Part shown: in pieces, positions 2,642 through 61,316 of the stretch
Layout: each line of letters opens with the position of its first letter
How positions within the stretch are numbered: the stretch's first letter is position 1
Source of the DNA: Lingula anatina
Lineage: Eukaryota; Animalia; Brachiopoda
Reading direction: 5' to 3'
NCBI GenBank assembly: GCA_051362555.1
Contig: CM120640.1
Coordinates: 20,708,001 to 20,772,000, forward strand
DNA length: 64,000 nucleotides
Made by a program: the position numbers and the translations under genes
The notes under the pieces: model-generated
What the model was told of the DNA's origin: nothing
Database searches by the model: none
Seen by the model: the letters and a program-made list of their open reading frames with translations, nothing else

Positions 2642-2643
<2 letters not shown>

Positions 2644-2704
<61 letters not shown>
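2644..2704. repeat. Compound (GT)n(GA)n microsatellite
   Basis: Seen directly. Similar compound repeats at 23603-23660 and 48826-48882. Confidence 0.95.
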
Positions 2705-2709
<5 letters not shown>

Positions 2710-14771: not shown

Positions 14772-14844
14772 ATGCAGTGGACGGGGGTCCTCAAGCTGCT
14801 GCTGTTTATGAGCTATGTCCACGGATCGGCCAGCCAGCAAATGT
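14772..14844 (+). CDS. Exon 1: start codon and signal peptide MQWTGVLKLLLFMSYVHGSASQQM
   Basis: Hydrophobic N-terminus followed by small residues (HGSAS). Strong donor T|GTAAGT in phase 1 matches the phase-1 acceptor at 23843. An upstream acceptor TTTTCAG ends at 14712, which implies a further 5' UTR exon. Confidence 0.7.
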
Positions 14845-15494
14845 GTAAGTCGTGTGTTTATCATTTTTCTGTTTTTTTTTTTGTCTTCCCAACAGGCTGT
14901 TACTGATGAACAGTATTCGTGGCAATAATAGCAACTAAAGTTCATTGTTTCGAGTAAAATGCACATAATAAATTTCTCATATTTGGTCAGCAGTATGCGG
15001 TTTATTTATAGTTTTGTGTTTGTGGAAAGAAATAAGTGCTTTATTCTTTTCAAATGTATTTGTTCACAAGTGTGTGTGTGTGTCTGTGTTTGTGTGTGCG
15101 TGCGTGCGTGCTCATGCGTGTGTGCGCGCGTGTGTGTACAGAATTAATTCATAAAAATGAAGCGTTCTCTCGGTGCTTTTTCTTCCAAGAGCAAAACCCA
15201 TTTTACTATCCCCATATTTGGTGTATTTTGATAAGCTCCCATCTGAACTTCAAAGGGCCGCCAGACCAACCGCTGCAACCCATATCAAAAGGGTTCTTGA
15301 ATTTTCTTAAATGCACAGATGCACAATGGTCGCATTTTCCGTGGAACTTTTCTTCAAAATGGATAAAAAAAACACATGCATGTTTTTTTTATGTTTGATG
15401 GGGGTAGGGTGAGGTGAATCCAGTTGTTTCCGGTTACTTAGTAAAATAGTAACAGTGTTACTTTTCAAAAGTTTTCTGAAGTTCAATGCATCTG

Positions 15495-15543
<49 letters not shown>

Positions 15544-18500
15544 CCCAGAATGATAGTGAAATATCTCCTTGAACATAAACAAGGCGTGCTATAGATGACC
15601 TTTTGTTCCCTTTTAGTTTGTTGTTGACCTTATATTACATGGTTTAGATATCATCTATATCAGATTTGATATCAGTTTAATCTGGAAACAATGATTGTAA
15701 GCACGTGAATACGCTCTTTAACAATTGTCTTTCCCGCCGATCTTCAAAACAGATTAATTTATTTTTATTTTGTTTTGATGACATATAGATAAGAAAAGAT
15801 AGAGTACAATAACATTGTTTATTTCTTCTAATAAAACCATGCAATCCTTGTTGTGAAGGAAAGAATAATAGATGTTATTATATTGGAAGGGTTATTTTCA
15901 CTTTTTTATAAACTTTTCTTGATGTCCATTGAAAAATCATTTGTATACATCCAGTACACAATTATGAACGCGATCTCGTATCAACATTTTATGTATCTGG
16001 TCCTTTCCGAAATTCGCTGTCAATTGATAAGCCTCCCTTTGTTTTTCTCGAATTTCGAAAGTCTTAATTTTAATTTAAAAGAAAATTATAACAAGGTGTA
16101 TCTAAGTCATCTAATGACCATCAGGGTCAAATTTTGCTTTGTTATTTTACACAGAATTGACCCATATACTAGACAGAAATAAGGGTAAAGTTGTTACTTT
16201 TAGCTTCCTACATATCCCCATACCCGATGCGAACTACAGGTACACTGTATATATAGATTAGTTTGGGGTATTTTACAAAACTTTTCCCAAGCCTTTTCCC
16301 AAGTTTTGGTAGGGGAGAGTAGTAGCCTACATGCCATTTTGACTTGGATAAGGGGAGGGCTTTATTTGGTTATGAGTCTGATATAAAGCTCATGGTTTAT
16401 TTATGTATACAGTGTTGAGATATATTTTCATTCATTCATGTATTATTATAGCGCAACGAGTCACATTGCTTTATAATAGGAGAGCGCCCAGGCTCTCGGG
16501 CTTATACATGTGCTAAAGTCCCTTTGTCGTTTATAATATATCAATTTTCGATATTAAGAAGTTTGTGTGATTGTTAATTTTCATAAAAGTAACTGCATAT
16601 TTGTCTTCACAATATGATCTGCTAGGTAATCGCAATATACTGATCCACCTCACCCTATGATTATCGTTTTTCTGTGAAGCACTGCATAATGGCAATTTCT
16701 TTTCCACTAAACCCATTATCTCCGCTAGCATTTGTGAAATACCCGATCATGTCAATGCATGACAGTGCAAAATATGCACTCATCTATTTCTACCGATACA
16801 ACTTTTTTGCTTGTCATCGCCTATAAGATGGATTATTCCGAGTTGCCCAGAGAATGCACTAAAGTTTCTCTTTTCCTTTCGTTTTAATACAAACTCTTTG
16901 GACCATAAGCATGGATAGGTCTTATAACAACAATGGGTCTTTCATTAGTTCCGCCAGTTTTTGAAAAGCATAAATGAAAGAATTGTTATGTACATATATC
17001 ATAGTGTGTTTATTTGTTCTCTTTGACGCCTAACTTTTAGTGAAACGTGCTTGTAATACAATAGCACGTCTTCCCAGAAAAAATATTTTCGGGATGAGTC
17101 ACTGTTAAACGAAACTTAGTATAATAAAATCATAAGAATCTCGGGGGTGGGAGTGCCCCTCCCCTATAGCTGTTTTCGTTTATTATTTATTTATTTATTT
17201 AACTACCTGTTTAAATTATTATTCTGAAATTCTGGTTTATATATATCCAGACATTGTACATATATGACTGAGTAAATATTGATCACTGTGTCCTGTCAGT
17301 GTCGCCGCTGTTGCTGCCACTGCTGGAAACTAGGGACCCTTTTTACACAGAGGGAAACCATTTAAATTGAAAAGTGGCCAATTCTTCAGTTTTAAGTTTT
17401 TCTTTCTTTTGCATCAGCTCAAATTAAAAACATTAATACAGTATTAACTTGCCATTGGTGCGGTGAAAACTATACAGGATAAACCGGTGACACACTCCGA
17501 CCAAGTGCTTTAAAAACACTTTGTTTCGACACGGCATGATTGTCAAAAGAGAATGCACTGAAAGTCAATATAGATTTTTACCACTCATACAACTAATCAA
17601 TTCAAACTTGAAAGGGGGCATTAAAGATAATCATTCCATAAAATTATCAGTTTATACTGCCTTTTCTACATAGGGTTATAATATTATAGATTCCTTTGTT
17701 AAATAAAATGATATCTGTGCCCTGCAGTAAAAAACACTATAGTACTCCAAGTGTTGTTTTCGTAACAATTTTCGTAGCAATCGCACTGATGGAATAAAAC
17801 CGGTCAGGATAAAATGCAGCTGTTCTTGTGTGTGTGTGTGTGTATGTGGGTGTGTGTGATCGGTGATGTATTGGAATTAATTAAATATATTATAAATATT
17901 TATCACTTAAACACTTTATAAAATGAAGTGAAAATAAATCAACAGCAAGAATTGATACACACTAGATCATACAGAAATCATTTATGACATGTAGGCCTAT
18001 ACCAAATAAATACCAATATATATGGATTAAGCTTTACATTTATTGCAAACAAATATTCCAAGACACGAACGAACCAAAAATCAACCCACCCAGGTGCTCC
18101 ACTCTTTTCACACCTCAACTTTGTAATTTCTTTCGCACTTGTCATATGTCATGTGCGGTAAACCCCGGTCAGTAATAAATGACAGTGTATCCGCATTCCA
18201 AATGTTAAAAACTGTCGCTATGGGCACTGCACTTCTTTTGAAACTAAAGGACATCACGACTGATAAATAAACTAGATGTTGCCGATGGGGAGAGTTCCAG
18301 CAACTGATAAATAGGAAAAAACGAACAAATATTTATTCCATTTGTTAAACGCTATAGAAATTAAGATGAAGTGTAACAGCCAAAATTTCGTCTCCTGACC
18401 AGTTGTGACGAAGCTATTGGCTTGTCTTCGTCATGTTACGCGAGGTAGCAAATACAACTCAGATATTATCTTTCTTATCATTTATTGAACTACTGTCCAG

Positions 18501-21500
18501 TTATTACCCGCGCCGCTTCTTTCATTTCTATTCCTACCTCATGCAATCTCTAGCGGCCTTCTCTCTGTTTACACTAAGCGCAGTTGTATAAATACCATAA
18601 GAGCATGTCAATCAACTTAAGTTACTCTACTAAACACTCCCCACTCTTATTCACTGCATGCTGTCACTTACTAACATTACATTATCTCCCGGGGACGATA
18701 TGCCTGTCCCTAGGCATATTTAAAATTAAAATATACGTTAATTAAAAGTAAACTTTCTTAAACACTGTATTTGTCTATTATCATAAATTCATGCAAAACA
18801 AAACTAAGTACATAGATTTTTATAATAAACTTACGATAAGATAGCAATACATTTGACATGAAACCCCAAATATAACTTAAAGGAAGATAGATTGACAACT
18901 CTTCAGAAAATATGGTTGTTCGTGGATGTGTATTTACATGTTGTAATGTGCGGCCCAAGAGTACAGATACTTTTAATTGTTTTCTCCGCGCAGATGTTTA
19001 AATCTGTTACTCTCTTATTATGGCTCTGACACATTTCCATATACGGTTTCTCTTTTCTAGTTGTTATTTCAGATAAAGTATGCACTACGTGAGACAATAG
19101 GGTTAGCTACTCCCTGTCCGATGAATAGCATTCACCACAGCATTGCCCAGCGCATCGTCTATGATGAAATACCTTTTCATCTTCATATTTATCCACACTG
19201 TAGCGCTCTCTTTTGATGGCTATAAGAGAAACAATCGTTTTATATCAAACCCAATCCACGATTGAACAAAAATGTACCGAAAAAATAATATGGTAAGAAT
19301 CTTCCTTAATGCATATCATCAGTTTCACGTCATCATCTTTATAAAAGTTAAGTACACTGTTCCTATACTAATAACTGTATAGTTAAATATCAATAACTAA
19401 TAACTATAAGACCGACAAACTGAATATAGATATATTATAAATACTAAACGTATTTATTATTCAACACACAATACTTAACGTGTCATTATAACCACATGCA
19501 ATAACATTTGACGCAAAGTTAACCAATAAAATCTAAAGTTCATTTCCCACAAATGAATAGTTCCATTTGGTATGGTCCGTTACATCCTCCTTGAATTTTA
19601 GCACGTAAGTTCAGTTAGCATATAATGTCAAATCCGTCCTTCTAGACAGTGCATAGCGATTGTCATCTGCCACTCATTGTATATGGATAAACGTCTTATT
19701 CGCGCACGTTGGCATACGTGTGGATAAATGTTCACAGTTCCCTGTATGTCCACGAACGTCTATGTCCAGCGTTTACGAATATATCCAAAATGAATGAAGC
19801 AGAAATGCATGTCAAGAAAAACTTAACTACGTATATTATAACAATCATCATCAAACTTGAATACAGTCACATTTAACAGGCAAGATTTTAACTTGCCATA
19901 GTATTATCCATCCAAAAGATTATGATAACAATAAAACATATATGGAACCATGCTAATAATACGATAATTTTTCCAACAATAATACTTATGCTAATAATAA
20001 AAATAATAATAATAACGCAATCTGGCGTCCCAGATGCTAATATTTATCTGGCGTCCCAGATTTTAGTATTTATATGACGTCATGCTCACACTTTTATACC
20101 TCAACTCCACGTATTCAGTTATCCATAACCACATTGATATCCGCCACATCTTAATCATTTTATTCCTCACAATATATCAAATAATATCCAAATATGACCA
20201 TTTATCCTTACATCATTTATACTCATTAACTCATTTGTTCCACTCGATCTTTTGATTGCCAATATAACCACATTATCAACTGACAAGATCATTTTAAGAA
20301 GATCGTCGAAATGCCAGTGATTAGGACTTTAATTAAGGCAATTTGTCGAGAAAGTTCAAACTATTCTCCAATTTTATTCTTCGCAACCCAAAAACATAAT
20401 TTTATTGAAGGGACTTCCAATAAGGTAGATTAATCATAATCTTAATATTTGCTTGTCACCTTCAAAGGTGCATGCGCACTATCGATGATGTTTGACATTG
20501 CAAGGGGGTAGTGGGCGAAACAGAAGGGGTATTCTTATGAAAAGAAACCGAAACAAAGTGCAATGATAATTAGTATTGCCTGAAATTAAGGTGAATGCCA
20601 TTTAAGTGTCGTATCCTGTAAAAGAAAATTTAAAAACTCGTTATGATGGATATTAAAATTATAAGAGTAGGCGAACAACGAAAAATTCATTCGCTGCCTG
20701 GCTAACCTGGAAAATTTTATCAATATTGATTAGTGCAACATTTTTGTTCAAGTCAACAACAAAATATTTTCAAATGCAGTTCTCCGTCTTGTCACGAATT
20801 TTTCAACAGTGAAGTGAGATATCTCAGCTGTTGGCATCTCTTCAAACATTCCGCAACCTGTAAAATTCTTAAGGTCAATAGATGCATAAAATGTAAACGG
20901 AAATGAGTTTACTTAATAAACATAAGACGTATAAAAAAAATGAATAATGTTTATATTTATCTAAATTAGCAGGTAACGGAAAATATAAGACATACAAAAT
21001 ATATTCACCAAACAAATTTTATAACGAGTCTACAACCAATTCAAATTATTTCTTTAATCAATACTCACACTTACTTACGTGAATCTTTTACGGATTCCGA
21101 GGGAAAATGAGGGACAACCATATCGCCGTTGAACTCCTAATAGTATTGTCCTAGAAAAGACTTAGCGTACATGTTTAAAAACAAACGTCAATGCCATTGA
21201 AATTTAAGAGCATCTTTTAATATTTTCCATAAAAAGTTTAATGACATCACTTTATGATAGTCTCTTTATAAATATCTTAATTCTATCCAATTAAAATTCA
21301 ACTTCGTCACGTTTGCTACTCCCATCTTACTGTCCTGCTTACAGCGTATTAATATCAGTTGCGTCTGTTAACCAATTTTTAAACGGGCGTGTTCTATTTC
21401 ATTGACACACCCCTACTTAATTTTCTTTCCCGTCACTTTAATATTATTCTCTTTAATGTCACCTCGTTTAGTTTTTAATTGGATCCCTAATATTCTAACC

Positions 21501-23601
21501 AAAAGGGAATCCATTTCCAATAAGATGCTGTGCTTCAACTTTTTATCTGACGCGACCTCGTAAGTCTTTTACTTCAAATAATTCATCAGTGGTCTGGGAC
21601 AAATTCGCTTGTCCTCCAGCCTCATTTTCTCGTTCTTCTTCATTTTTCTATTTTTTTCTTACTCTCTTTGTTTATGGGCAAAGTTAGCAACGAAGCCCTG
21701 GAGTTATTTTGAAGGAACTTTCCTTGTCAAACATTCAACACAAGAACGAACATAATGACATCTGTAAATGACCTTTTCTAAAAAGTACACCGTGTGCGTA
21801 ATGGTAACTACGTGTTTTGAATAACCTTATGACCGATTGCATTATCGTTGTGTAAACTAGACAAAACTTTATACTCTAACTTGTCTGAAAAACAAGTTGC
21901 AAAGAACCTCCTGGGTGGGGTGATTTTCTGCCATCAATTATCACGTTATCTCCTATCTCTAACAACAAGTAGCCGAGCGCCTTTACAACTAAGTGGAAGT
22001 TCGTCTAATGTCAAGTATGTGATAATTGACGCAAAATTCTTATCTTTACGTTGGAGTTTTTAAAACAATACCTCTTTAAAACAAATGCCTCGCAATCTTG
22101 ACATTTTGACAATGTCATATTTTTGTCACCTTTCACTAACTGTTAAAAGCATTCCAGACCTTTAAATTCGTAGCCACTCTGTTTTAATTTAAAGTAAAGT
22201 ACTTGTGTCTAGATCTAACATATGTATTCTGTTCAAACATGCATCATTAAAAAACTGTGCGGGGTTTATTAGGTTTTTCTAAGTTTTATTCTTCAACGTT
22301 TCCCTCATGGTAATGGCGGCGGCTAATCGCTTCTGCATTCGCGAGGTGTTTACCTTTACTCTGCTTAATTGAAATCTGTTAGGGGATAAATTCAATAACC
22401 AATAATTCATTACTTCTAGAAATTCGATTACATTCAAATGGGCATGGAATTCTGGCACTGCCTTACACTTTGTCAACGCGAATATCAGTTACTGAAACTA
22501 TGTACCCTTAATACCTGACCTCTTCTCGCGCCATGAAACTATTCAGATAATGCTAAGTTTGCATAACTCGGCCTTCGTAAAACTGTTTACCTCACTAAGG
22601 CAATATTCGAAATTGTGACTGGCTACCATAAAGTCATCGAAATATCGCAAAAAGAATTTTCTAAAATAATCGCTTAAAGCAATTGTCTTACCTTCCGTTT
22701 TATGTTTGTCCAATTCCAATCTCCCATCTAGATACTTTGTGTTCGCCTACGTATTTTCGTCCGGTGATCGTTCTCTCTCTTTTCGACAAGACTCATGATG
22801 TCAAACATCTATGTTTATATTTTGCATCCTCCACATTTTGTGACGAAGCTATTGGCTTGTCTTCGTCATGTTACGCGAGGTAGCAAATACAACTCAGATA
22901 TTATCTTTCTTATCATTTATTGAACTACTGTCCAGTTATTACCCGCGCCGCTTCTTTCATTTCTATTCCTACCTCATGCAATCTCTAGCGGCCTTCTCTC
23001 TGTTTACGCTAAGCGCAGTTGTATAAATACCATAAGAGCATGTCAATCAACTTAAGTTACTCTACTAAACACTCCCCACTCTTATTCACTGCATGCTGTC
23101 ACTTACTAACATTACATTGTCAGTCTTAATCACGGTAATGAGGGCTGTGATAGGTAATGCAACCTATCACACCATGTGTGTTGGTTCAGTCAGGTGACTC
23201 CACCTCTGCTTGCCACCTCTCCCTCAGGAGTGGAAGCTAAAGGTTGGGTAACTTACCTGGGGGGGGGGGGGGGGGGGGGGATGGGTTGTATTACTTTTCG
23301 TCATGATTGCGTAATTATCGCGTTTTATTTACAACTGCTTTTGTAAATAGGCCTACCTCGCTGCATTGTCGTGCCTTGCAGAGAGTGATATTCATCTACT
23401 GTGTGTTTATTCGAGCGCTCGCGTGTTTGATTGTTGTAATAGAACGTTTAAAATAATACTTATATAAACCTTATAAGGTGCCATCAATGACATACGTTCA
23501 TTCTTTCCTAAAAAATTATTTTCTAATTTTACAAGCTTTTAAGTAGAGCCTATTAGTAGATGCATCCTAGATTTTATCAGCCAGTTCGTCTGTTGAACCG
23601 A

Positions 23602-23664
<63 letters not shown>

Positions 23665-26600
23665 TGACTTTCAAACAACGCACTCTTTATAAGAATAGAT
23701 GGATGTTCTTCATAAGAAAAGTTGGATGTTTGTTTTTCATTTTAGGTTTACTTACCGAGGGGTAGCAGTGGATAATCTTGTGGCATTTTTAACACTTTTT
23801 TCACTCCGTACATGCACCTGACCGGTATTTTGAAATTTCCAGCTTGCCCCGGGGGTGGCAGTGCCCTGGGTATGAAGGACGGACGAATCACAGACCAGCA
23901 GTTGTCTGCATCTAGCATTTACAGAGCTGACTCAACCCCCCAGATGGCTCGACTGAATAACACGGCATCAGGTAGGTGAAAATAACACAAAATGGGACAA
24001 AATATACATTCTACCAAGATATGCAGTTTAAAGTCCAAAATTAGTACTTAGTGGCATAGCCACGTGACCTAATAATAGCTGCCAGTCTGCGAGGCAAGGA
24101 TTCTTATAATTTTCTGATCCCTTCAGGGCTTATGCTGGCCCAAGCATGAAACACTGAATCTAACAGAGTTTGTCTGCTGGTTGGACGGGCATTTGTCAAA
24201 AGTTTTGACATATCATTCCACACATTTTCTATTATGTTTGCATCTGGACTCTGGGCAGGCCACATCACCCTGCGAATGTCCTGTTGGTCAAACCAATCAT
24301 CAACTGCTCTGGGTCTGTGACTAGGAGCATTGTCATCCTGGTGAATAAATGGATAATTCCTGTCACCAAACATGTTAGTAATAGATGGTACATGTAGCAA
24401 GCCTGACTCCAAAACATCGATATATTTCTGGTGATTCATGTTTCCATCAACCACTACCAATTCACCCACGCCACGGATGCTGATGCAGCCCCACACATGA
24501 TAGATATGCAGCTCCGGGTTCGAAAATTCAGTGCCTGTGGTTCAAATGCTTTACCAGCAGTTCTCCAGCATCGGACCCGTCTGTCATCAGAGGTCAGACC
24601 AAAGCGGCACTCATAAAAAATTATATAAGACCATTTGTCATCGACTGTCCAGTTCCAGATCCTGTTGGCCTTAGTTCACTCTACGTTGCCTGTTTTGTAA
24701 CGATATAAGATGTTTCAGTCTTGCTACCCTGCTGTACACTCTCTGAGCATGTAACCGACGCCTAGCAGTTTTCACAGACAGATTCTTATGTGTGAAATTG
24801 TTCCACAGTGTTGTCAATTGACAAGCAATGTCGAACATTGACAACCTGGACATCAAAATCAGTCGTCGGTCTTCACGGTCGGTAGTTTTTCCTGGACGAC
24901 CCATCAGAGGCAATTTGTCTCTTGATCCAGTGTTTATATACCAAGACCTGACCCTCTGCACAGTTCTGACTGAACAATTCAACTGTATCGATATTCTGAC
25001 ATTGCTTATATCCCGCCTCTTCAGGTTAATAACTTGACCTCTATAATCGTAAGATACTTGCCTGTATCTTGTCATATTGGAGGAAGACAGGAATAACATT
25101 TGCTGTAAATGTACAAGACCAACAATACAATTCCATGGTACAGCGGTTTTATACTCATTAGTCACATTATAAGTAGACCAGGCATTATAACTACCCAAGA
25201 TCTGCCTACTTTGATTGCTCTGATTTAGGGGGTGACACTTCTATTGTCCAGTCACCAGTGTATGTATGGCCAAATAATCCTCAGGCTTATTTTCACTCCA
25301 GTTTTGATTTGATGATTTTATTTATAGACTTATAGACAAAATATGATTACGTACAGCTAATTGTCGATTAAAATATTTATTTTGAGTATTGAGCCATTTG
25401 TTATTTATAGGTTATAGGGGAGCCTGGGTTCCACGGTGGGATCATTCCTACGCAAACGAATACCTTATGATTGACATGCTGGTGCCTCACATTATCACTG
25501 GTATAGCTGTACAGAACGGGGGAGCATACTGGATAAACTACTGGATGAAAGAGTTTGAAATCATGTACGGTAATGATAATTTGTCCTGGAGAAAGTACCA
25601 GCGAGTAGAAGGAGAAGACATGGTGTTTGCTGGGATTTCGTCGCACGCCAGAGACGATATCGTGACGTACACACTGGATCGGCCTTTTTCGGTGAGAATC
25701 GACCGTATCCGCTTGCTAGTTAAGAGACGTTGTTCAGACCAGTGTTAAATGGTAAACATTGTCGATATATGTACATTGTAACTTACAATTGATTTTTTGT
25801 GAAATGGTAAACGTTACAAAAAAAAAAAAAAGTTAAAAAATTTTTGAAAATGTATTATCAAAAATGTTTGAAATATACATAAATATACATGTCCACACAT
25901 CTGCATCAACTTCTGCAATGCAACCTTAAAGTAAGATATAAACGCTTTTCTCTATAGGCAAGGTACATAGTTGTCTCTGCTACCAGTTGGCAGAATGCCC
26001 CCGCCCTTCGTATGGAGCTGTACGGCTGTCACGACCCAAATCCAAGTTCAGCTACTTACACGCTGGTTCAGGCAGATATAGTTGTAAGAAGTTACTTTAT
26101 TTATATTAGTGCGATGTTGTAATGATAAATCGATTGAATGAAAATTAAATTCCACTAATTTATTTTATATCTGAAGTTGGTATCACGTAAGGCATGAAAT
26201 GTTTATGAAATAATGGTAATTAGTCCATAAGGTCTAACCAGAAATTATGTTTAGAAATGAGCATCCTATTCCATTTTTGCAAGTGTATAATATTGGGGGA
26301 GTTATGAGCTCCTAATGTTCTAAAGTCCGTTAACTTCATGTACCTTGCCGATAAGCCATGATTTGGCTAGAAAATAGGAGCAGTCACCTACATGTACCCC
26401 TACTCACTTGTGACATTGTCCGTTACTATCATAGGAAAGGTAGAGCGTGATTGAGTACTGCTGAGCAATCAAAGCCGTCATTTCAAAACGGCCAGGTCAT
26501 ATTTAACTTATCACCGGCAATATAAGCCTTCTTATTGGTTCGAAGGTACAGTATAAATTGTTCCTACAGGACAAAGAGTTATTCTTTTTTACTGACGACT

Positions 26601-44600: not shown

Positions 44601-45115
44601 AATTCTTATTGAACTATCTGAATGAATATGAATATGAAAACACAGAGAAACCGATAGACGCGTAATTAGGTGAATTATTGGATACATAAATAAATAAATA
44701 AATTTAAAAACAGCTGCAATTCTTCCTCTAAATCTCTTTTATTGAAAAATCAACCAGAACTACAATGAAGTCGACATTCCCTTACAGTGACCCAGTCGGC
44801 GAGTGGGTACTTTGAGGTGGCATTCGTGAGTGGGGAACAGGTGTATGCTTCTGGTCAGGTTAACTACAACTTTCAACCAAAAATGCCAACATTGACTTTG
44901 ACTCCAAGTTCCATCAGGACATCGATATCCAGGGGAAAAACTCGACTCTTTGAGGTAAGTTGGTCGACATCCCCCCCTATTGCCATACCTGACACTGAGC
45001 AGCTCGCGGACCGACAATGTGTTCGGTTTTATGAGGACGGCTGTATAGCAGAAGACGGTCGTGTCGATACGGGGCCACCCATCAGTGAGTGAAATAAACA
45101 CGATTTTAGCCTTTG

Positions 45116-45157
<42 letters not shown>

Positions 45158-48100: not shown

Positions 48101-48825
48101 TGCATGGTGAGGTATGTGGCACAGAAGATCCATTTTTTATGCAAGCCAAGTTTAGCATAAATGTGCATTCTCGTTTATCGATTAGTGTAGGTCCCTTTAT
48201 AGTTTTATAGTTTCACGTCCAATGACAAAAACAGAACGTCTGTTAGTGTCTAATGTGTGAAAATTGTTTTATTTTCTACAAGTCTCAGACAAATCGACAA
48301 TAACTACATGACTGTTCTTCAAATGAAAACATTTTTCAGGCACAGGATGGTCCTATCGGCGACATTGCCGCCAATACTTCCGTTCAGTTTTCTGTACTGG
48401 TATATGGGTGTGGGGTGCAGGCTGATGAAGCCACTGGTCTTGCCCCTGTCGTTGCTCGGCAAAGAAGGGCATTTGGAGGCACTGTGTAAGTTAACTGCAT
48501 ACGCATGCATACGCTTCCCAGCGGGCAAATTATGTTGCTTTAACGTTGAAACAACGTTGAACCATAACGTTGAGAAGACATTGAATAAACGTTGGATTTG
48601 AAAGTTGTGTCAACCTCAGATAACAACGTTGTATCAACGTCAGAAAACAATGTTATATCAACCCCACCCAGCGGGAAATTAGCCTGGATGTGTTTAGCAG
48701 TAGGACATGTTTGATGGCTAAATATATGTAGAGTATAAATGAATGGCCTTTAAGTTAAAATTTCCAAGGTTTAGATAAATATATATATAAGAAGATAACT
48801 ACAACCATATATAACTGTTATTACA

Positions 48826-48886
<61 letters not shown>

Positions 48887-51800: not shown

Positions 51801-54800
51801 GAGATTTGCACTAAGGACTCCATCTAGTGTTTTTTTTATTTTTATTATATTTTTTTAAATTTTTTTTTTTACAAAATGTGCGCATTGAATCCTAATGTTA
51901 TAAGACACATATGTTTCATTGGCGAAAAATAGATAAATAGACAGTTTTATTTTTACTCTAGGCGGGGGCGCAAACCATTTTTGATTGGCACAATGAAGCG
52001 AATCAGCAGTTTTTAGACGCAAAGACGGTAACCATTTCTTTTTTTTTACATTTCCCCAATGTTTTCACAGTTGGAAAATGTTGTTTCTGTCAAAATGTTT
52101 ATTTGAATATGATGATCTTTCTTTATGGGCGGTGGTTACAGGTTTTTAAGTATCAAACAAAACGGGTATAATCAAGTGTATTACATGTTTGTAAGCTGCA
52201 ACATATTTATGAACATGTGTATTTTTCTAGGGCAGGGGTGTCTGTGCCAAAGTTCGGATCCAGATCGTGCAGGAATTGGTTCTCACAAGAGATGCGTTTG
52301 AAGCGACACTGGAAATTGAAAATGGCGAGACAAATACTTTGGAGAAGATTAGAGTTGAAATAATAATCACTCGGAGTGAAACTGGCGAAAGAGCAACCGA
52401 ATTGTTTTCGATAGGTAATGCATTTTTTTTGTAAGAATAATGATCTCCAGTAATCTTTTATGGCAAAAATGCTCATGTTATATGTAATTAAAGAAAAGCC
52501 CGTCAATTTAGATGCCGATTAATTCTGTTTATGTCATGATACTTAAAAACGTCTTTTTCAGACAGATATGGTCACAGTTGAACTAATATTTAAAAATTAT
52601 GCCAACTTTTTTTTCGTATGCAGGATTAACAAACAGAAAAACGGGGTCGTTTTACCGAACTTCCCTGTGGTTGTTCTTTTTAAAAAAAGACCAGTTTGGA
52701 TCACATATTATATTTTATACTCAGGTCAGCCCAAGCTATCCGGATTAACGGACGTGTCTGGAAATGGTACCCTTACTCCAAAACAAGAGGGAAGCTCTAT
52801 CTGGCTTATAGTACCTTACAGTGAGGCGGCACCTCAAGAGGACACTCAATATGACATGGGTACATTAAATTAATCAGTGATTTGTGTTTAATAGTAGTTT
52901 ACAGTTTTCAAGTATTGATAGTGGCATCCGGTGCTTTCGAAAGTAAATGCATTATGGTGGAAATCAATGACTAATATTTGTTTGAAAAAAATCCGAGTTT
53001 AGAATAGAATTAATAGAGTATTTACAGTATTTTAAACATTTTTCACTTGTAAAAATGCTTTGATTGGATACTCGCATCTATTTTACATTTCATTGGTATA
53101 ATTGGTGGTAGGATGTTCAATATTTAGCCCTTACTTATCTTGCAGGAGGGAAACTATTTTATACACTCAACGGAGAAGAAATCACAGTTCCTCTTTTCCC
53201 TGACACCGTGACCGTTAAACCAGACCCACGCCTTCACATTAACTACTTCTTGGAAAAGTATGTCCTAGGGGACGATCCATTCACAACAGGTACCTGGTGT
53301 ATACAAAATAATTTTTCTATTGTAGAGGTGGCAGATATTTATTATTTCAGTGACGTGTCAGTTGAGCAGCAGTATGAAGAGGATTGGCAGCTGAAAGCCA
53401 TTGCGGAAATTGGCGTAATTGCATTGGCTAAGATGAGTACAAAAAAACTGAAAGACTTTCAAAATGCAGCTTTAAAAAATGAGAACTCCTCTCATCTGTC
53501 GCTTTTTTCCGCAAGTTCATTTTACGAATATATATTGCATAGTAGGTTAATAAGACACTTTTGTTGACTTTTTCCAGATGTTGTTGAACCATCGGTCCCA
53601 TTCTCGCTGGGAGTACTGGTTTCAAATACAGGGTATGGTTCCGCAAACCAAATGCAGATCACGTCAGCTCAGCCTGAAATTATTGATAACGAGAAGGGAC
53701 TACTTATCAGTTTCAAAATCACTGGCGCTCAGTTGGGGGCAGAACCGATTTCGACGTCCTTGACTGTGAATTTTGGAGACATACTACCAAATACTACAAA
53801 AATGGCGAGATGGATGATGACGTCATCGCTACCAGGAAGATTTTCTAATTATTCGGCGACGTTCGAGAATATCAATCCATTAGGTAATATTTTAAGATTT
53901 TATACTGTTTTTGATATTATTGATAAATATAAGTGTGTATTCTGAATAGATATTGTGGGTTGAAATAGGTATATCCCATGTTATTTATTCATAAGCAGAA
54001 ATGTCTAACATTTACAGAAAGGTCAGTACAATCGTGACGATGGTATTGACTTCTGTTTTTGTTGCTACCCGAGGTAGAAAGTACAAAACCTTTTTTTCTT
54101 TCATATTATTTATTCACTATTTCCAGTCCCATTTTCTCCATCTCTCCCTTTACATCTTTCAATCTCCTGCGGCCTTCTCGCTGTTTTACCCGCTTCGTGA
54201 AATTTAACCGCCAACCTCACAGAATTTCGACCCACAAAAATGTTTGTCCACTCAAATTGAATGTGAAATATTAATTTGTTTTTTTAGGAGACCCTCAGTT
54301 ATCAGTTTTAGATTCCGTTGAATTTCACGAGCTTCTACATGTCGTTCGTGTGGAACCAGACGACGGCATTCCGGACTTCTTGGTCGTGCCAGACATGAGT
54401 TTGGATTTACTTCCCAATTTTATATACACCAGTCACGACGGAAACAACCCATACCCTGTGTCGTCTGCAAACATAACTCATGTTCAGTTTAATGGAGGCA
54501 AAGAAATAAAGGTACCACAATGGCAGTAAAAGCTTTTAAACTCCTAAAGAAAAATTACTATGTGTTCATTGGCATATTTCTTAATGAAGATCAGAAATTA
54601 TTTATCTGAATTTTTTAAATTCTTCTTGGCAAGTGAAAACATATAGACATGTATACAGTAGGCCTGTTAACGCTCACTTTTTGATATGAAATAAACCAGG
54701 TAATGCACGTAATCTTTATTAAACAATCTGTTGTTAATATAATCTATCTTTTTACAGTTAACAGTGAAGTCGGACAGCAGCGGTTGGATTTATGCCAGAA

Positions 54801-57800
54801 CTGAATTCAGTGAAGATTTATCACTAGATGTCGACTCTGTTACTCGTTCCGATGGAAAAACAATATTACCTGACTACAATATGTGGATTGGCAAAATAAA
54901 CGACAATTCGTTACTACAGATTGTAGATTTTTATGAAAATACAACCGGCGTGCACATGTACATGTACACCGTCAAGCTGGCAAGAAAAAATATCTTTGCT
55001 CCAAAGTTTGACCCGACATACATATCACTGAATGTTACTGAAGGGACACCAACTGACACTCTTATTTACACTGCTATGGCCACAGATAACGACACTCCCC
55101 CTGAGAACATGGTTTCATACCACTTACAGAGTACCGGTAGTGTGCCTTTCAGCGTAAACGATCAAAGCGGGGAAATCAGGGTGTCAGGAGATCTGGATAG
55201 AGAAATGGAGGACATCATTTCATTCCGTATTCTAGCAACGGACGGAGGGGAGCCACAAAAAACTGGAACTCTGTCCGTGGATGCCCATGTTATCGATGTC
55301 AATGACGAGTACCCTGTATTCAACCCCACTCAATATTCAACAAACTTAGAGGTTGATGCGCCAGTATCATATTCAATTGTTCAAGTATCGGCTACAGACC
55401 GAGATAGCGGTTCCAATGGCCAACTTACATACGGCATAAACAATCCAGATGGAACATTCGAAATTGATCCCGACACTGGTGAATTACGGGTGGCGTCTTC
55501 GTTAAACACCTCTTTGTCGCCTTATGTGTTGGAGATATTTGCTGAAGATCGTGGAATTCCCCCGAGGCGCAGCCCAGTGCTCGCACAAGTGACCATTAAA
55601 GTAACACCTGTAAATCGCAATGCCCCTGTATTTGATGCTGACGTCAACAGTTTCTCGATAGCGGAAGCTGCTATTATAGGCACGGTGGTTGGCTCTGTGT
55701 CAGCATCAGACCACGACACCTCACAGACGGTCACATACATGCTGGGTCCAAACCAAAACATTCCTTTCGAAGTGAACACAACCAGTGGAGCCCTGAGAAC
55801 AACTGGTGTTTTGGACTACGAAAAGGCCAAGTTGTACGAGTTTACCGTTCTTGCAAAGGACAACGGCAACCCACCGACTGGAAGTCTAACTGGCACCACG
55901 ACGGTGTCGGTAAATGTTACTGATGTGAACGACAACGCAGCCGCATTCGCTGACAATGCATACGACGTGACTATCCTGGAGGACTCTGAGATGGGAACGA
56001 ATGTCATTCGCACGGTCGCTTTTGATGCAGATTCTGGTGAAAATGGTAGGATCTCGATTGTAACGTTAATAGGATCTGACCTTCCATTCGAAGTCAATTT
56101 TGATGGATCCAACGTAACTGTGCGGACTGCGGGTTTGTTGGACAGGGAAACCAAGGACTCGTATGTTTTTAATCTGGTTGCTGTGGATGCCGGGGTTCCT
56201 CAAAAGACGGGTTTGGCACAGGTCACGGTGACAGTAGAAGATGTGAATGACAACCCACCTGTCATTACGCCGCCAGCCGACCCGGTGACCTTGGCACCAG
56301 ACACGCCCGTTAACACTGAAGTAACCACAGTCCAGGCAACCGATGCTGACATCACAGGTTTATATTACGTTTTTCTAGATGATCGACAACGAATTATGTT
56401 CATGTCTTATAATCTTAGAGTGAAGTCTCGCTTAATGAATATCTTAAGGTAAAACCTGCACGTGATATGCCACACGGTACTTTTACTGGTACCGTCAATG
56501 TGTATATGAGGAATAGATGTGTTATCATAGAATGAACTAAACTTGTATGATTATTATAGTCCATTGCCAATATCAATTTTGTACTATGCTTTTAGGAATG
56601 CTTCGATATTCTTTGTCGAATGATGGTTCCGGAAAGTTCGCCATCAACGCTGAGACTGGGGCTATTCGTCTAATAAAGCCATTGGCCGCGGCCCAGACAT
56701 CGTTTACTGTCGACGTTTTGGTAACAGACGGCGTGCATAATGTCACGGCCAGTGTCAACCTGCAAGTTGCAACGTCCAACACCTTTGCTCCCTTTTTTAA
56801 CAAAACCAAATATGAAACGATGGTAATCAATTATATTCTTTTATCAGAAAATTGTACTAAGTTGTGTCAATCTTAACTTAATACCTCAGTACTATTTACG
56901 CTAACTTCCGCCCTCCTTAATGTAAAAATAAAGAAATAGTTCGTTATAAAACAGATACAACAAAAGTGTTACCTTCTCTAGACATGAGACCGACTTAGAA
57001 TGTAAGTGGAGAGTCAAGATTTACCAATATTGATGTTACAATTAATCATAACACTTAATATATTACAGGTACTCGAAAACTCTGCCCCAGGGGTAGTTGT
57101 AGAGACGGTAGTTGCAACTGATCAAGACAGCAGCGTAGTGACGTATTCTATAGCTGATGGTAATGTTGGGAGTGCATTCACAATTGACGCCGTTTCTGGT
57201 AAGTTTTCATTCCACTTGACACAGTTAAGTTTATACAACATTATATGGAAAATATGTAGTACTGGATGTTCCATATGCATTTATTTTAACAACAGTATGT
57301 AATTCTGCCTTATACACTTTATACGTCAATCACCCTACGTATTTATATCGAAACAAGGGGTTGGTGCAATTAAGAATTTTTTTTCGGAATTAGACCTAGC
57401 ATTTATACTAAAGAACATACTTTTAAGTATTAAAATTAAATTAAAATTAAGTATTTGGTATTTTAATCAATAGCCTTAGAAGGGCAAATGGGTCCGAAGT
57501 TAATTGATTGCTGACACTCTGTTGAAAGGAAGAAAAATGGCGGTCATTTTATGATACGGACACTACGATAAGCTCCTTCACCGATCCCTTTTTGTGGATA
57601 GCAGATACAAAATATTTATCTAAGAATTGAAGAAATTTCTAGAACCAGAAGTATTGGTTATAATGTAATTCAATTTTATTTTATTTTCAAGGCCAAATCA
57701 CTGTCCAAGGAAGTTTAGACAGAGAAAGCAGACCTATGTATAATTTGACAGTCGTGGCAAGTGACAGTGGCATCAACGGGCAAAATATCCTCACCTCAGC

Positions 57801-60800
57801 TGTACCCGTCTTCATCACAGTTGGAGATGTCAATGAGTTTACTCCAGAATTTCAGGAGACCGAACTGGTGTCTCGCATATATGAAAATCTGCCCGGGAAT
57901 ACTTTCCTAAGAGAGGTGAGCTTTTTTGTTCTGTTCAGTAACATCAGTTCGAGCTAAATACCTGTTTTGTAATTTTAATGCGTAAGGTGATGTGAACTGA
58001 TACAGAACGTTTAGTTTGGAGAGAGAGGAACGGAGCTATGATAAATTTTATCCCCAAATATCCCACGCCCTGCTCGGTCAAGCAGCCTGTTTTGTTTAAT
58101 ACCAATAACACTCAATAAAACGGTATTTTCCTCCATCTTTCAGTTTAAAGTTCAGGACAATGACACTGATCAGACTATCCACTTCACGTTGATACAATCA
58201 GCAGAAAATGCTTTCTTCATCTCTTCCGACGGCCAGATATATATAACCAAATCACTGGACAGGGAGATGACTGGCCTTTACAGAATGGCAGTAGTTGCAA
58301 AGGACGATGGTAAGATCCACACAAAACATACACGTGCACTCCGTATATGGTAGTGTGAAAGTACTTAATATTAATGGAACACTAACCATTGTTTTTAAGT
58401 GAGTGCAGAACCATCTTGAAATGCTTTTGATTGACATAAAGGATATTCGTTATGTCCCTTTGTCATTGTTACCTGGTGATTTGGTTCTGAAATATTCATT
58501 TTGGTTCTTTCACACTTGTTCATTGCAAATTTGATATTTTATGTAGGTGTTCCCCCACGAAGTTCCACCATGGACCTGGAAGTACAGGTCCTCGATGTCA
58601 ACGACAACGCCCCGGTCTTCACTGCTCCCTCCTATAATGAAACTGTAAACCTGGCTGACCTCCCTGACGGTTCAGACGCAATCCTCACCGTGAAAGCCGT
58701 TGATGCAGATATTGATGCCAATGGTGTTGTACGATACGGCTTAGAGTCCTCCCCAAATGATTATTTTGAGATCGACAGCATAATGGGAGTAATCCGCATA
58801 CTGCCTGCAGGCCGGAACGTTGTTGGAGAGAGGACCGAAACCCTTACGGTTGTCGCTACAGACCGGGGTACCCCGCCACAAACTTCAGCTGCAGTAGCAA
58901 GAATCACGTTGATTGGGGCTGAGACTCCACGTACAAACTATTCAATTGAGGTAAGAAAACCTAACTTAAGATCTGTCAGTAGGAAAAGCACATATGCACG
59001 TATCACCCAACAAGGCCCTCTGTTGAAGTAGAGTAATCTGAGATATTGGTGGTGGATTGATTTATTTCATTTCTTTGCAACTTATGATAATTTGGCCTCT
59101 TCGTCGTATAAAAGTGTTTGACCCAGTAAACGGATTGATTATTAGACATTACGTTATAGTTTCGCAGTTAACACGTCAGGAACTTGGTCCTGGGGACGAT
59201 TTCACATATTACAGGACTGTCTTAAAAATGAGTAGTGACTTGAGGCATATGCTTATAAGCAGTTATCTTTCTTAGGATGGGAAAATGAATCTCTTAAGAC
59301 TAAATCCTTGTTACAAAGTAGGCGCAATACTTAATTTAACACTACTTACTTATTGTGGGTCAAGGAAGACTTAAATATTGGCCTTAAAGTTCGGATCAAT
59401 TTTTATCTTATAGGTATCTGAAGACACATTGCCCGGATCCACCATTCTACACTTAAATGTAACCCAGGTTGGTCTCAGTGTTGTCTATACAATAGTGGAC
59501 GGAAATGCGGAAGGGAAATTTTCTGTCGAGGTGCATGGTAAGTACAACCACCTGCTGGAATTCAATTATCTTTTCTACTGATTGTTCCCCAGCTACTGAT
59601 AAGATATTTATGTCTCCTCCATCCCAGTGCATCACAAACTTGCATATTCCCGTTCATAGCAAAAGAGAATGTAACAAAGACTATCGGGTGTTCGTGATTT
59701 GGCCAAACAAGGCCGCTTTTATTAATTGTTGTCGCCATAAAATATCGTTTGACTACGCCAAACTTTCCTTTATTCAGTTGGTTGCAATCAAGTCGCGCTT
59801 TCGCAAATGTTGGAATTAGAAAGATGCCAACCTGCAGGTATCGGGATAATATTGATGAATTGATTTATATAAATGAAACTTTTAATGTAGATGGTTTTCC
59901 TGTCATCCATTTTTTTGTAAGAATATTTAGCCACTGTTGATTGTTTTATGGGTCATTCCTCCTACAGGTCACCTCGTGTTGGAATCACGGTTGGATAGAG
60001 AAACGACACCGTCATACGTTTTAACACTGAATGGAACAGATGGACAGTTTACCGTTCATATCACTGTAACAAGATCGACGTCATCCACGTCAACAACGAC
60101 GTCAACAACGACCCCGACAACGACGACGACAACGGAGACTTTGACAACGACGACGGAGACTTCGACAACGACGACAACGGAGACTTCGACAACGACATCA
60201 TCAGAAACGGAGTCAACGACAACGGTACTGACACCGTCTACCACCACTCCAACTATCCAGCAGCTGAATGAAGGTGCTTTCGTTTTTCTTTATTTTTATG
60301 TCAAACTGCGTTGGAAGTTTCACTATGTAAACATCTGTGTTTAACTCAGTTGTCTTTACGCTTGTATTTTAATTACGTCCCATGTTTGCATGTTTTCAAT
60401 GTGTTGTTCATGTCTGAAAAGACACAGAACAAATGTTTTGCTTAATAGCAACAAAATGTCCAGTATGTTAATGAATTACATAAATAGATTTGTATGGAGT
60501 TTTGAGTTCATAATATGTAAACTTAATTTGTCAATAATTCCTTCAGAATTGACTGCGAAGAGACGGGAAGTGTTTGACGTCATGGAACAACTCAAAGACG
60601 CAGCTCTGCCTACCCAGGACTTCATGCGTATGTTTAACCAGTGGAGGATAATGGTAGGTTTTGACAGTAGAGATCTGTCATCAACCGTTATATCGTGTGA
60701 AATACTTTCAACATGCTGTCGTGCTTTAGGACCTCTTTCTCTACCTTCATGTACATACTATTAAACGGTAGTCGTTTTCTTTTTCGAGGCCAATTTTTTT

Positions 60801-61316
60801 TTTACATTTCTAAATATTTACGTATGTTTCCAAGTAATTATGTTTTGGATATGTATTAAATAAGAATATTTGGAAAGGACATTAAAGGAAGTGAATGATT
60901 TGGACAAGTATATAAAGGGGTGTAAATCCACGTGCATGGCGCAGCATTACATCTGCTCCATGAAAAGTAATATACTGTGCGGGTATCCAGAGACAAAGGT
61001 CCTTGAGAAAGAAAAAAACAGGTTAAATCAAAGAATACAAATGTATTGGTTAGTTCGGGGTCAAGATAAAGATATAAAAGTCCTGTGTTTGGGTAAAATA
61101 ATATTAAGACCCATGCCAGGTTCTAGTAATGTGACTCCGACTTTCCGAAGACTGCCCTCCCCCAATTTACTCCCAACCCCGGGTAAAATTATACAAAGCA
61201 AACAAATCTTTTTAATTCAATGTATGCGGTTTTGTAGATATGATTATTTATTATTCCAGATTTTTGAATACCTACAAGTTTACAATGAGCGACAGGAGCG
61301 AATGAATGAAGAATAG
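14772..61316 (+). CDS. Giant multidomain secreted protein, about 4,950 aa, 55 coding exons: signal peptide, F5/8C, 4x beta-helix (with SRCR), EGF, IPT, Ig/CARDB-like module, about 9 cadherin repeats, Thr-rich stalk
   Basis: Manual exon chain: 14772-14844, 23843-23971, 25411-25691, 25958-26083, 26897-27035, 27564-27680, 27980-29350, 29678-29776, 30085-30258, 30503-30888, 31153-32065, 32244-32342, 34431-34614, 35007-35161, 36031-36689, 36975-37291, 37501-37710, 38099-38178, 38414-38530, 39052-40441, 40735-40853, 41129-41321, 41706-41838, 42097-42312, 42641-42951, 43280-43397, 43691-43867, 44399-44528, 44788-44954, 45609-45862, 46133-46290, 46492-46639, 47647-47893, 48340-48485, 48935-49140, 49924-50019, 50410-50563, 50937-51110, 51337-51619, 51962-52027, 52231-52414, 52725-52859, 53146-53289, 53578-53883, 54288-54511, 54758-56357, 56596-56822, 57069-57198, 57692-57915, 58144-58309, 58547-58950, 59414-59537, 59968-60273, 60547-60653, 61260-61316. 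All introns are GT-AG except one GC-AG. Phases are consistent, there are no internal stops, and domains continue across junctions. Confidence 0.85.
15496..15542. repeat. (TAA)n microsatellite
   Basis: Seen directly; it produces the spurious poly-Tyr ORF. Confidence 0.95.
18404..18681 (-). repeat. LTR (3' LTR of the minus-strand element)
   Basis: TGTGACGAAGC...AACATTACA. Matches 22839-23116 with one substitution seen (TTTACACTAAG vs TTTACGCTAAG). Confidence 0.93.
21713..22670 (-). pseudogene. Fragmented Gypsy pol (RT core and integrase zinc finger)
   Basis: YFDD motif, then VLRR..ANLAL and EEVRY*GYIVS. LHNDNAIGH...YVRSCVECLTRK gives HHCC. Multiple stops and frameshifts. Confidence 0.8.
22824..22834 (-). 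other. Primer binding site, probably tRNA-Ala
   Basis: Plus-strand GCATCCTCCAC matches the 3' end of metazoan tRNA-Ala(AGC) as I recall it (...GCATCCTCCACCA). It lies 4 nt inside the LTR. Confidence 0.6.
22839..23116 (-). repeat. LTR (5' LTR of the minus-strand element)
   Basis: Second copy of the 278-bp repeat; the PBS-like sequence lies immediately inside it. Confidence 0.93.
23258..23280. repeat. Poly-G run of about 23 nt
   Basis: Seen directly; could form a G-quadruplex. Confidence 0.9.
23843..26083 (+). CDS. Exons 2-4: F5/8 type C (discoidin) domain
   Basis: CPGGGSALGMKDGRITDQQLSASS...ARLN / GAWVP...EYLMIDM...ITGIAVQ / ARYIVV...WQNAPALRMELYGC follows the FA58C consensus from start to end. 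Confidence 0.92.
24041..25260 (-). mobile_element. Tc1/mariner (DD34E) transposon relic in intron 2
   Basis: Transposase pseudogene runs 25075 to 24041: paired-like HTH, GRPGKTT, WGCIS, QDDNAPSH...SPDANIIE (34 aa between D and E), C-terminal RGYATKY*. Stops at 24671 and 24104, frameshifts, and the first catalytic D is lost. One TIR-like end CACTGGTGACTGGAC is next to TA at 25261-25262; the other end was not found. Confidence 0.92.
26897..32342 (+). CDS. Exons 5-12: beta-helix modules 1-2 (PbH1, bark beetle/Anakonda-like) and start of module 3; Thr-rich furin linker in exon 9
   Basis: Asn/Ile/Phe-rich repeats (IxxNxFxNN) with recurring caps LTIxPGV..GIxVxG, WxGIxF, NYWG/NWWG..RIxD..PYL. ORF track 27988..29358 and 31117..32121. 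Confidence 0.9.
27305..27455. repeat. Degenerate tandem repeat built on CTCGAAATTTCGA, likely TE-derived
   Basis: Recurring TCGAAA(A/T)TT units in intron 5. Confidence 0.5.
33331..33614. mobile_element. Small CACTA/EnSpm-like MITE in intron 12
   Basis: CCCGCATGAAAATGCAGTAG ... CTACTTCGTTTTCGTGCGGG inverted ends, AT on both flanks, internal GCAGTAG repeats. Confidence 0.7.
34431..35161 (+). CDS. Exons 13-14: scavenger receptor cysteine-rich (SRCR) domain
   Basis: LRAANGSGPHEGRLEVFFNNTWQLVCGTYGWDMRAAQVACRQLGY ... MNCNGDEHFLQEC ... C ... ASVVC. Confidence 0.95.
36031..40441 (+). CDS. Exons 15-20: beta-helix modules 3-4, then three tenascin-type EGF repeats
   Basis: PbH1 repeats with ENCWD and HNWWG caps, then CNNVNNCSGNGVCIRPDTCEC, CQGRGTCVGPNTCQC and CSKHGLCIEPNRC. 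Confidence 0.92.
38668..38708 (+). ncRNA. Minimal hammerhead ribozyme motif, Penelope-like element type, in intron 19
   Basis: CTGAAGA (38672-38678), A, stem II GATCTT-GCGAT-AAGGTC, GAAAC, GTC. Predicted cut after 38704. Stem I is only about 3 bp. Confidence 0.6.
40735..42312 (+). CDS. Exons 21-24: laminin-type EGF repeats, IPT/TIG domain, EGF
   Basis: CFTRYQGENCSECSGNHWGPEC; VLSVAPDGGPDIGGTVVRVTGHNF..CRFG..GTWISTEEVTCKAP (IPT consensus); GICSFGECLCSKPWSGDNC. Confidence 0.88.
42641..54511 (+). CDS. Exons 25-45: Ig-like / CARDB-like / carboxypeptidase-regulatory-like module with a Cys/Gly-rich insert
   Basis: Beta-rich segments PSGMALD..IRW, VNVTNSGLATAHNI, VEDEYTYFG..LANATV, WRVEPVTFEDRYVITLEADFETQVPMPVV, GVCAKVRIQIVQELVLTRDAFEATLEIENG, GDDPFT..EPSVPFSLGVLVSNTGYG..ITSAQPEIIDNEKGLLI. 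Domain names are inferred from motif resemblance. Confidence 0.8.
45116..45184. repeat. (AAT)n followed by (ATT)n, an inverted microsatellite pair
   Basis: Seen directly. Confidence 0.9.
46659..47421. mobile_element. MITE (non-autonomous DNA transposon) in intron 32
   Basis: Terminal inverted repeats of about 37 bp, AGAGAGTTTTGGCAAGGCCTTCCGTAYGACGT. ATT on both flanks is a possible 3-bp TSD, as in PIF/Harbinger-related groups. No ORF. Confidence 0.85.
48517..48675. mobile_element. Small CACTA/EnSpm-like element in intron 34
   Basis: CCCAGCGGG at both ends, with multiple AACGTTG subterminal repeats. Confidence 0.6.
49470..49565. repeat. Degenerate minisatellite, unit about ACACGTTTTTTGGCTT
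   Basis: About five imperfect tandem units. Confidence 0.75.
54758..60073 (+). CDS. Exons 46-53: about nine cadherin repeats
   Basis: Repeated Ca-binding motifs A.D.D, LDRE/LDYE and DVND..P.F (for example DVNDEYPVF, DVNDNPPVI, DVNEFTPEF, DVNDNAPVF). ORF 54764..56452. Confidence 0.95.
60074..61316 (+). CDS. End of exon 53 plus exons 54-55: Thr/Ser-rich mucin-like stalk and short helical C-terminus; stop TAG at 61314-61316
   Basis: STSSTSTTTSTTTPTTTTTTETL..., then IQQLNEELTAKRREVFDVMEQLKDAALPTQDFMRMFNQWRIM|IFEYLQVYNERQERMNEE*. Phases match. Confidence 0.72.

Follow-up and report, generated by a model that had tools for sequence, protein, structure and literature searches.

A gene for a giant, predicted extracellular protein of the brachiopod Lingula anatina carries a 1,400-residue module in common with giant bacterial proteins

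The locus and its gene model

We analysed 64,000 nucleotides of the Lingula anatina genome (assembly GCA_051362555.1, contig CM120640.1, positions 20,708,001 to 20,772,000; hereafter the window, in whose numbering all coordinates are given) and found one very large gene on the plus strand at 14772-61316. Manual rebuilding followed by a script check yields 55 exons, 14,853 nt and 4,950 amino acids (aa), the sole stop being the terminal one. The predicted protein opens with a signal-like peptide, no other 19-residue window having a hydropathy above 1.9, and its central ~1,400 residues are collinear with parts of giant exported bacterial proteins. We are confident that this is one real, single gene. 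An earlier note on this DNA had proposed 55 phase-compatible exons in one frame from signal peptide to stop, and the rebuilt model bears this out.

Fifty-three of the 54 introns are GT-AG and one, at 29351-29677, is GC-AG, with its joint present in RNA reads; 26 introns are in phase 1, 17 in phase 0 and 11 in phase 2. RNA reads from four runs carrying the same species label were aligned to positions 23700-43699, a stretch that holds 24 of the model introns. The reads gave 34 joints, and all 15 of those listed, between 27680 and 43280, match introns of the model; nine of the 24 introns are not among the listed joints. The gene is expressed in two of the four runs, X7 and X8, which have depth in 30 of 30 bins, while runs X1 and X4, of similar base number, cover almost nothing except repeats and place one read on one joint. 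Most reads are 90-99% alike to the window, so their source is other individuals or populations. We rejected an additional exon at 26780-26827, which breaks the frame, and an acceptor at 51307, which creates a stop.

The RefSeq annotation covers only the last 1,815 aa of the locus under the label "protocadherin Fat 4-like", with isoforms of 1,573 and 1,815 aa. Our aa 3379-4950 align at 99% with its isoform X3, isoform X1 begins at Met3130 (judged by eye), and a 101-aa exon used as query returns the Lingula anatina "protocadherin Fat 4-like" at 99%. That the locus instead holds two or more adjacent genes, one of them this separate Fat 4-like gene, draws on the RefSeq starts at aa 3130 or 3379, on read coverage of introns that ends before 43397 and on the splitting of the module in some bacteria, but we consider it very improbable, as the RefSeq starts lie within a domain and are not followed by a signal peptide, single polypeptides that cross the region are numerous, all phases fit and the splice scores of the region are ordinary. 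Single homologous polypeptides cover aa ~2480-3920, and single collinear proteins of leech, bivalve, gastropod, hemichordate and lamprey bridge most of the joints outside the RNA-covered ones. The RefSeq model is partial and its label misleading.

Domain architecture

The features of the gene, all on the plus strand, are as follows.

14772-14844, plus strand: exon 1, predicted signal peptide (aa 1-24) from sequence, with orthologues aligning from aa 1-7; followed by a 9-kb intron
23843-26083, plus strand: exons 2-4, F5/8 type C (discoidin) domain, aa ~26-190 (Pfam PF00754, E 4.5e-12)
26897-40170, plus strand: exons 5-20, four right-handed beta-helix repeats with head motifs at aa 229, 726, 1250 and 1816 (Pfam PF13229 on four exon frames, motif scan, RNA joints)
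30085-30258, plus strand: exon 9, Thr-rich insert of repeat 2 with a furin-type site, RRKR (aa 826-829, 30225-30236); both flanking RNA joints seen
34431-35161, plus strand: exons 13-14, single SRCR domain inserted in repeat 3 (Pfam PF00530)
40171-41838, plus strand: end of exon 20 to exon 23, EGF repeats and IPT/TIG (Pfam, RNA joints)
42097-54979, plus strand: exon 24 to the start of exon 46, module of ~1,400 aa (aa ~2490-3910) with 22 introns
48457-48468, plus strand: furin-type site 1, RQRR (aa 3170-3173)
48469-50997, plus strand: 178-aa piece between the two sites, with beta-hairpin, Gly linker and Cys-rich helical bundle (12 Cys), ending in site 2
50986-50997, plus strand: furin-type site 2, RRRR
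52231-54979, plus strand: conserved core (aa 3506-3910), starting with Cys3510 (52243-52245)
54980-60065, plus strand: exons 46-53, cadherin repeats in nine Pfam stretches
60066-61316, plus strand: Ser/Thr-rich stalk and short polar helical tail to the stop at 61316, with no transmembrane segment by hydropathy; C-terminus identical in three RefSeq isoform sequences

Pfam thus agrees with the beta-helix, EGF, IPT/TIG and cadherin modules named in the earlier note; the "lectin" of that note is an F5/8C discoidin domain, and its SRCR is present as a single copy. The "bacterial-type Ig" modules do contain immunoglobulin (Ig)-like domains, yet these are one part of the far larger module with furin-type sites. 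Exon 1 is the weakest exon, being one of two signal-peptide candidates in a scan of 1-23800; the other, at 23093-23153, is less likely. The EGF repeats match Pfam teneurin EGF models, partly below cut-off, He_PIG gives a weak Pfam match, and the exon joining the fourth beta-helix to the EGF repeats returned EGF matches only when used as a homologue query among proteins of 810-2,310 aa. Before one acceptor was shifted, 88 N-glycosylation motifs and three furin-type sites (aa 826, 3170 and 3348) were counted in the protein. Downstream of the stop, AATAAA occurs at 61412, 61489 and 61554, and no convincing alternative anchor exon or read-through was seen up to 64000.

A module shared with bacteria

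The module consists of EGF, a string of Ig-like domains, the furin-bracketed piece, a helical domain and a three-sandwich core. Pfam covers aa 2490-3910 sparsely and the core not at all, and NCBIfam has no model either. A pattern scan of GTDB genomes gave 598 hits, 584 of which were confirmed as matches; the 80 retained belong mostly to Verrucomicrobia and Planctomycetes, with cyanobacteria, Armatimonadota and Desulfobacterales also represented. Bacterial open reading frames (ORFs) are collinear with Lingula over aa ~2530-3910 at about 27-47% identity, and the carriers are uncharacterised giant exported proteins of 2,000-4,700 aa and more. Their flanks, scanned in 12 cases, hold Calx-beta, CARDB, LamG, PA14, C-type lectin, cadherin-like, dockerin, subtilase, RTX and PEP-CTERM elements, a company that resembles that of surface adhesins. 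A profile search of representatives at 50% identity retrieved 5,499 clusters at E ≤ 0.001 and 2,772 at 1e-30, the latter being the safer count, as the profile included some flanking columns. Among animals the module occurs in a sponge, lophotrochozoans, decapods, a hemichordate and lamprey, and no relative was found on viral contigs.

Mean identity to Lingula peaks in two domains of the core, at 57 and 66% over 16 animal-clade copies and at 44 and 53% over eight bacterial copies. An AlphaFold2 model of aa ~3250-3910 (mean predicted local distance difference test score 84) comprises a low-confidence Cys-rich bundle, the helical domain and three beta-sandwiches. Fold searches with the core returned generic Ig-like or pilin-like matches only (best Z 9.1, root-mean-square deviation (rmsd) 2.2, 94 residues aligned), as did Foldseek. 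The best hit to the helical part (Z 5.1, rmsd 6.1, 138 aligned; none at E 0.001) was taken as no match, and the furin-bracketed piece could not be clearly assigned to a membrane-active fold of the pore-forming or saposin-like kind; a missing fold match does not show a new fold. In the Atlas, the core retrieved only clusters labelled "hypothetical" (0.91) and the Cys-rich bundle retrieved nothing above 0.81.

Two further observations concern the bacterial copies. Stand-alone bacterial core proteins (L002:128-2539, L003:7863-10256, L007:2357-3520, L009:7878-11123, L011:5908-8502 and L016:5221-7155), in which a signal-like peptide lies immediately ahead of the conserved cysteine, offer small targets for structure determination. 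The module also lies on contigs titled Bifidobacteriaceae or Akkermansia muciniphila (L021, L036, L050, L055 and L063), which the tree groups elsewhere and which are possibly mis-binned.

Furin-type sites and a probably unpaired cysteine

From the last upstream Ig-like domain to the core, all aligned copies of the module are arranged alike: a loop is followed by a hairpin with Cys and by a Gly linker, after which come the variable, Cys-rich helical bundle, the helical domain and the core cysteine. This segment was recovered from 24 of 26 named animal proteins. Of 25 animal copies, 21 have a basic site in the loop and 22 have one after the bundle; of 46 bacterial copies, 4 and 3 do. The piece between the sites is an amphipathic 18-kDa unit, variable in animals and bacteria alike; its isoelectric point (pI) is 8.8 in Lingula and ranges from 5.2 to 9.3 over nine such pieces.

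An even cysteine count in the segment upstream of the core is seen in 24 of 25 animal copies and in 36 of 46 bacterial ones, and in 199 of 231 copies no further cysteine follows the core one within 369 aa; together these counts point to an unpaired Cys3510. Conserved alongside it in the core are Gln3519, Asn3676, Gln3691 and Asn3697; Cys-Gln and Lys-Asn are the residue pairs bonded in thioester and isopeptide adhesin domains. The core cysteine lies near the start of an ORF in nine of 73 loci scanned, and in five of these nine (from Desulfobacterales, a deltaproteobacterium and Armatimonadota) a signal-like peptide directly precedes it, which suggests that the core can be a separate subunit.

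An old bilaterian family

A homologue search among proteins of 2,754-5,000 aa found 370 relatives, 120 of them listed; the top named animal matches among those listed are from Helobdella, Solemya, Mytilus, Haliotis, Gigantopelta, Mya, Mercenaria, Sinanodonta and lamprey, all uncharacterised. The top animal orthologues have the domain order F5/8C, beta-helix, (SRCR), EGF, IPT, the same as in Lingula. Seven orthologues, when chained, cover 2,540-3,893 aa of the model collinearly (Sinanodonta 3,893 aa, Solemya 3,533, Helobdella 3,488 through the cadherins, lamprey 3,051), and a Saccoglossus protein of 7,485 aa aligns with aa 2-1872 and 2022-4004. This architecture is an old, uncharacterised bilaterian family and not a one-off fusion, judging from these alignments. 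The earlier note had recognised no characterised protein with the whole combination, and the literature agrees: neither the protein, its accessions nor the module is described in the sources covered, which exclude most subscription papers and supplements. Uniqueness of the combination does not hold, given orthologues across bilaterians. One gene for a giant extracellular scaffold, the further proposal of the note, is supported; the role that the note gave it, in adhesion, matrix or pattern recognition, is inferred.

The family differs most at its C-terminus. In most orthologues a Ser/Thr stalk leads to a terminal transmembrane or glycosylphosphatidylinositol-like tail, although the Helobdella model has no anchor; Lingula shares the collinear homology from signal peptide through module and has the stalk, but lacks the anchor. 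The Helobdella match runs through several cadherins to aa 4620, and molluscs retain about one cadherin. Lingula represents the variant of the family in which the cadherin rod is long and the anchor missing.

Abalone, Gigantopelta, Tegillarca and shrimp have expanded sets of paralogues, and the module is found in other settings too. In the sponge Dysidea avara (P0139) the whole module lies N-terminal to nine Calx-beta repeats, Ig, GAIN and seven transmembrane segments in an adhesion G-protein-coupled receptor. Tandem copies occur within one protein, three in Saccoglossus (P0244) and two in Halocaridina (P0124). A second animal architecture, with another N-terminus before the module, is seen in decapods and in unnamed sequences resembling the sponge clade (P0249, P0253, P0110, P0247, P0248 and P0252).

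Origin of the module

In trees of the core, from which rows aligning over fewer than 300 aa were excluded, a long branch separates the named animals, together with the unnamed sequences clustering with the sponge Dysidea, from the other copies, with Shimodaira-Hasegawa (SH) support of 99 (176 rows) and an SH-like approximate likelihood-ratio value of 100 in a quick tree of 55 chosen rows. The 22 introns and host-like GC content of the module argue that it is neither a contaminant nor a recent insert. One old transfer from bacteria to animals is the simplest reading of these alignments, and the module was probably acquired once. Several points limit what can be said of the direction and date of such a transfer: the trees are unrooted and the animal subtree differs from the species tree, the sponge, shrimp and lamprey cores clustering together versus the lophotrochozoans, and one look-alike cluster in the Atlas is half eukaryotic, with an algal label.

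A bolder scenario, which we offer tentatively and think unlikely as a whole, would be a second case of the teneurin kind: before the sponge/bilaterian split, animals would have captured a 1,400-aa, so far unnamed bacterial surface machine and equipped it with furin sites for the release of a hypervariable, disulfide-bonded payload, while a reactive cysteine staples the rest to chains or surfaces, the whole being reused in secreted scaffolds, membrane proteins and a sponge adhesion receptor.

Possible functions

Our preferred reading, to which we give about an even chance, is that the gene encodes a predicted secreted glycoprotein, likely cut by furin and likely cross-linked, that serves as an adhesive or matrix scaffold built on a probably once-acquired bacterial module. 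The discoidin domain, beta-helices and SRCR would form an arm that binds glycans or cell surfaces, and the cadherin repeats a calcium-stiffened rod. Furin would cut at aa 829, 3173 and 3351; site 1 apparently lies in a loop of the last Ig-like domain, such that the cut pieces may stay threaded together. An unpaired Cys3510 could then bond another chain or partner, and the module would serve as a joint that couples a variable binding arm to a stalk or anchor. In molluscs, the hemichordate and lamprey the protein would sit on the cell surface, and in Lingula it would be unattached, in mucus or matrix.

Several points tell against this scaffold. Motifs and cysteine parity are all that indicate furin cleavage and disulfides, and the Lingula segment has 13 cysteines, with the surplus one located before site 1. 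Between the furin sites conservation is poor, at 19-25% identity, which a structural role alone does not demand; this objection is tempered by some upstream Ig-like domains that are equally divergent (18-24%). In the part of the 2015 Lingula shell proteome consulted, neither a beta-helix nor an SRCR domain is listed (PMC4595640).

An alternative is an innate-defence trap: microbes would be caught by the glycan-binding arm, and the 18-kDa, disulfide-bonded helical piece, once released by furin, would act as an effector on membranes or in signalling, comparable to teneurins with their toxin-like C-terminus of bacterial origin. Two conserved sites excise exactly this amphipathic, Cys-rich piece, which is variable in animals and bacteria and basic in Lingula (pI 8.8); paralogues are expanded as noted above, and SRCR and discoidin domains are frequent in invertebrate recognition proteins. 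We nevertheless find a trap unlikely: the charge varies between copies, the hairpin at the start of the piece seems to form the last part of the Ig domain before it and would thereby impede release, and bacterial copies mostly miss the basic sites.

Rather less probable still is an Anakonda-like role in junctions or cell-cell adhesion, with the beta-helix repeats binding homophilically between epithelial cells and the remainder acting as a spacer. Anakonda combines a signal peptide with SRCR and beta-helices, and its repeat ectodomain mediates adhesion, according to the portion of the source consulted (PMC11698045), and many orthologues of the Lingula protein are membrane-anchored. The Lingula protein itself, however, has no anchor, four repeats rather than three and one SRCR; orthologue cytoplasmic tails are just ~10-25 aa; and CUB and Lectin_C found no match in 44 exon or frame pieces, which represent part of the exons, or in 10 full-length homologues.

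A shell-matrix protein whose acidic cadherin rod organises calcium phosphate seems very doubtful, even with cadherin the most counted domain among Lingula shell proteins (PMC4595640, as far as available) and a C-terminal fragment of pI 4.3, since the same portion of that genome paper does not link this gene to the shell, lists two shell cadherins (662 and 5,471 aa) that cannot be tied to it and has neither beta-helix nor SRCR in its shell-protein domain table, and since orthologues occur in the shell-less leech, hemichordate and lamprey.

Repeats within the introns

Intron 1 contains a 284-nt direct duplicate (18403-18686 and 22838-23121, 99% identical, 4.4 kb apart). A broken Tc1/mariner transposase (Pfam DDE_3, HTH_Tnp_Tc3_2) lies on the minus strand in intron 2 at 24107-25240, where divergent RNA reads from other copies map in all four runs. 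A repeat in intron 12 (32371-34370) has the top RNA depth of the read-covered stretch, again with divergent reads, and intron 32 carries 43-nt terminal inverted repeats 685 nt apart (46655-47425), resembling a miniature inverted-repeat transposable element.

Significance and comparison with known systems

The analysis defines a large, unannotated extracellular module common to bacteria and animals and corrects a partial and misleading annotation of the locus. The furin sites and the lone cysteine are open to direct biochemical tests, which are feasible on the small stand-alone bacterial cores. If the bacterial origin is true, the protein joins the teneurins as an early-animal surface protein built from a bacterial part.

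The closest counterparts of the module are the giant CARDB/Calx-beta/RTX proteins of Verrucomicrobia, Planctomycetes and cyanobacteria, which share the whole 1,400 aa collinearly and with an equal cysteine pattern, but have bacterial flanks and export tags, few basic sites and, in some cases, the module split over two genes.

Fat cadherins have about 34 N-terminal repeats, then EGF/LamG, a transmembrane segment and a cytoplasmic domain. Tandem cadherin repeats are all that the Lingula protein has in common with them; its ~9 repeats are C-terminal, with neither a transmembrane nor a cytoplasmic part.

The earlier note's likeness to bark beetle/Anakonda stands for the beta-helix/SRCR repeats and fails for the rest of the protein. 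The two share a signal peptide, repeated right-handed beta-helix units, an inserted SRCR and a large adhesive ectodomain; the available portions of two papers describe Anakonda as having a signal peptide, SRCR, a beta-helix triple-repeat ectodomain, CUB and C-type lectin-like domains (PMC11698045, PMC8006247). The Lingula protein, compared by features and not by sequence, differs in its four repeats, single SRCR and missing transmembrane segment and cytoplasmic tail, and has 2,700 extra residues (EGF/IPT, bacterial module, cadherins); the Drosophila Aka sequence was returned by none of the searches made. The protein is neither Anakonda nor a true Fat cadherin.

Teneurins are marked by a YD/RHS shell, an NHL propeller and type II topology. 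The Lingula protein has neither shell nor propeller (no YD/RHS or NHL Pfam match in exons or full-length orthologues), it is predicted to be secreted, its family being type I or secreted, and the two cores are unrelated. Both are nonetheless giant animal surface proteins with EGF repeats and a core drawn, in the Lingula protein probably, from a bacterial family, which in teneurins is a widespread and EGF-decorated one, according to the part of the source consulted (PMC6425310). By analogy, teneurins are the best model for the origin of this protein, and not its relatives.

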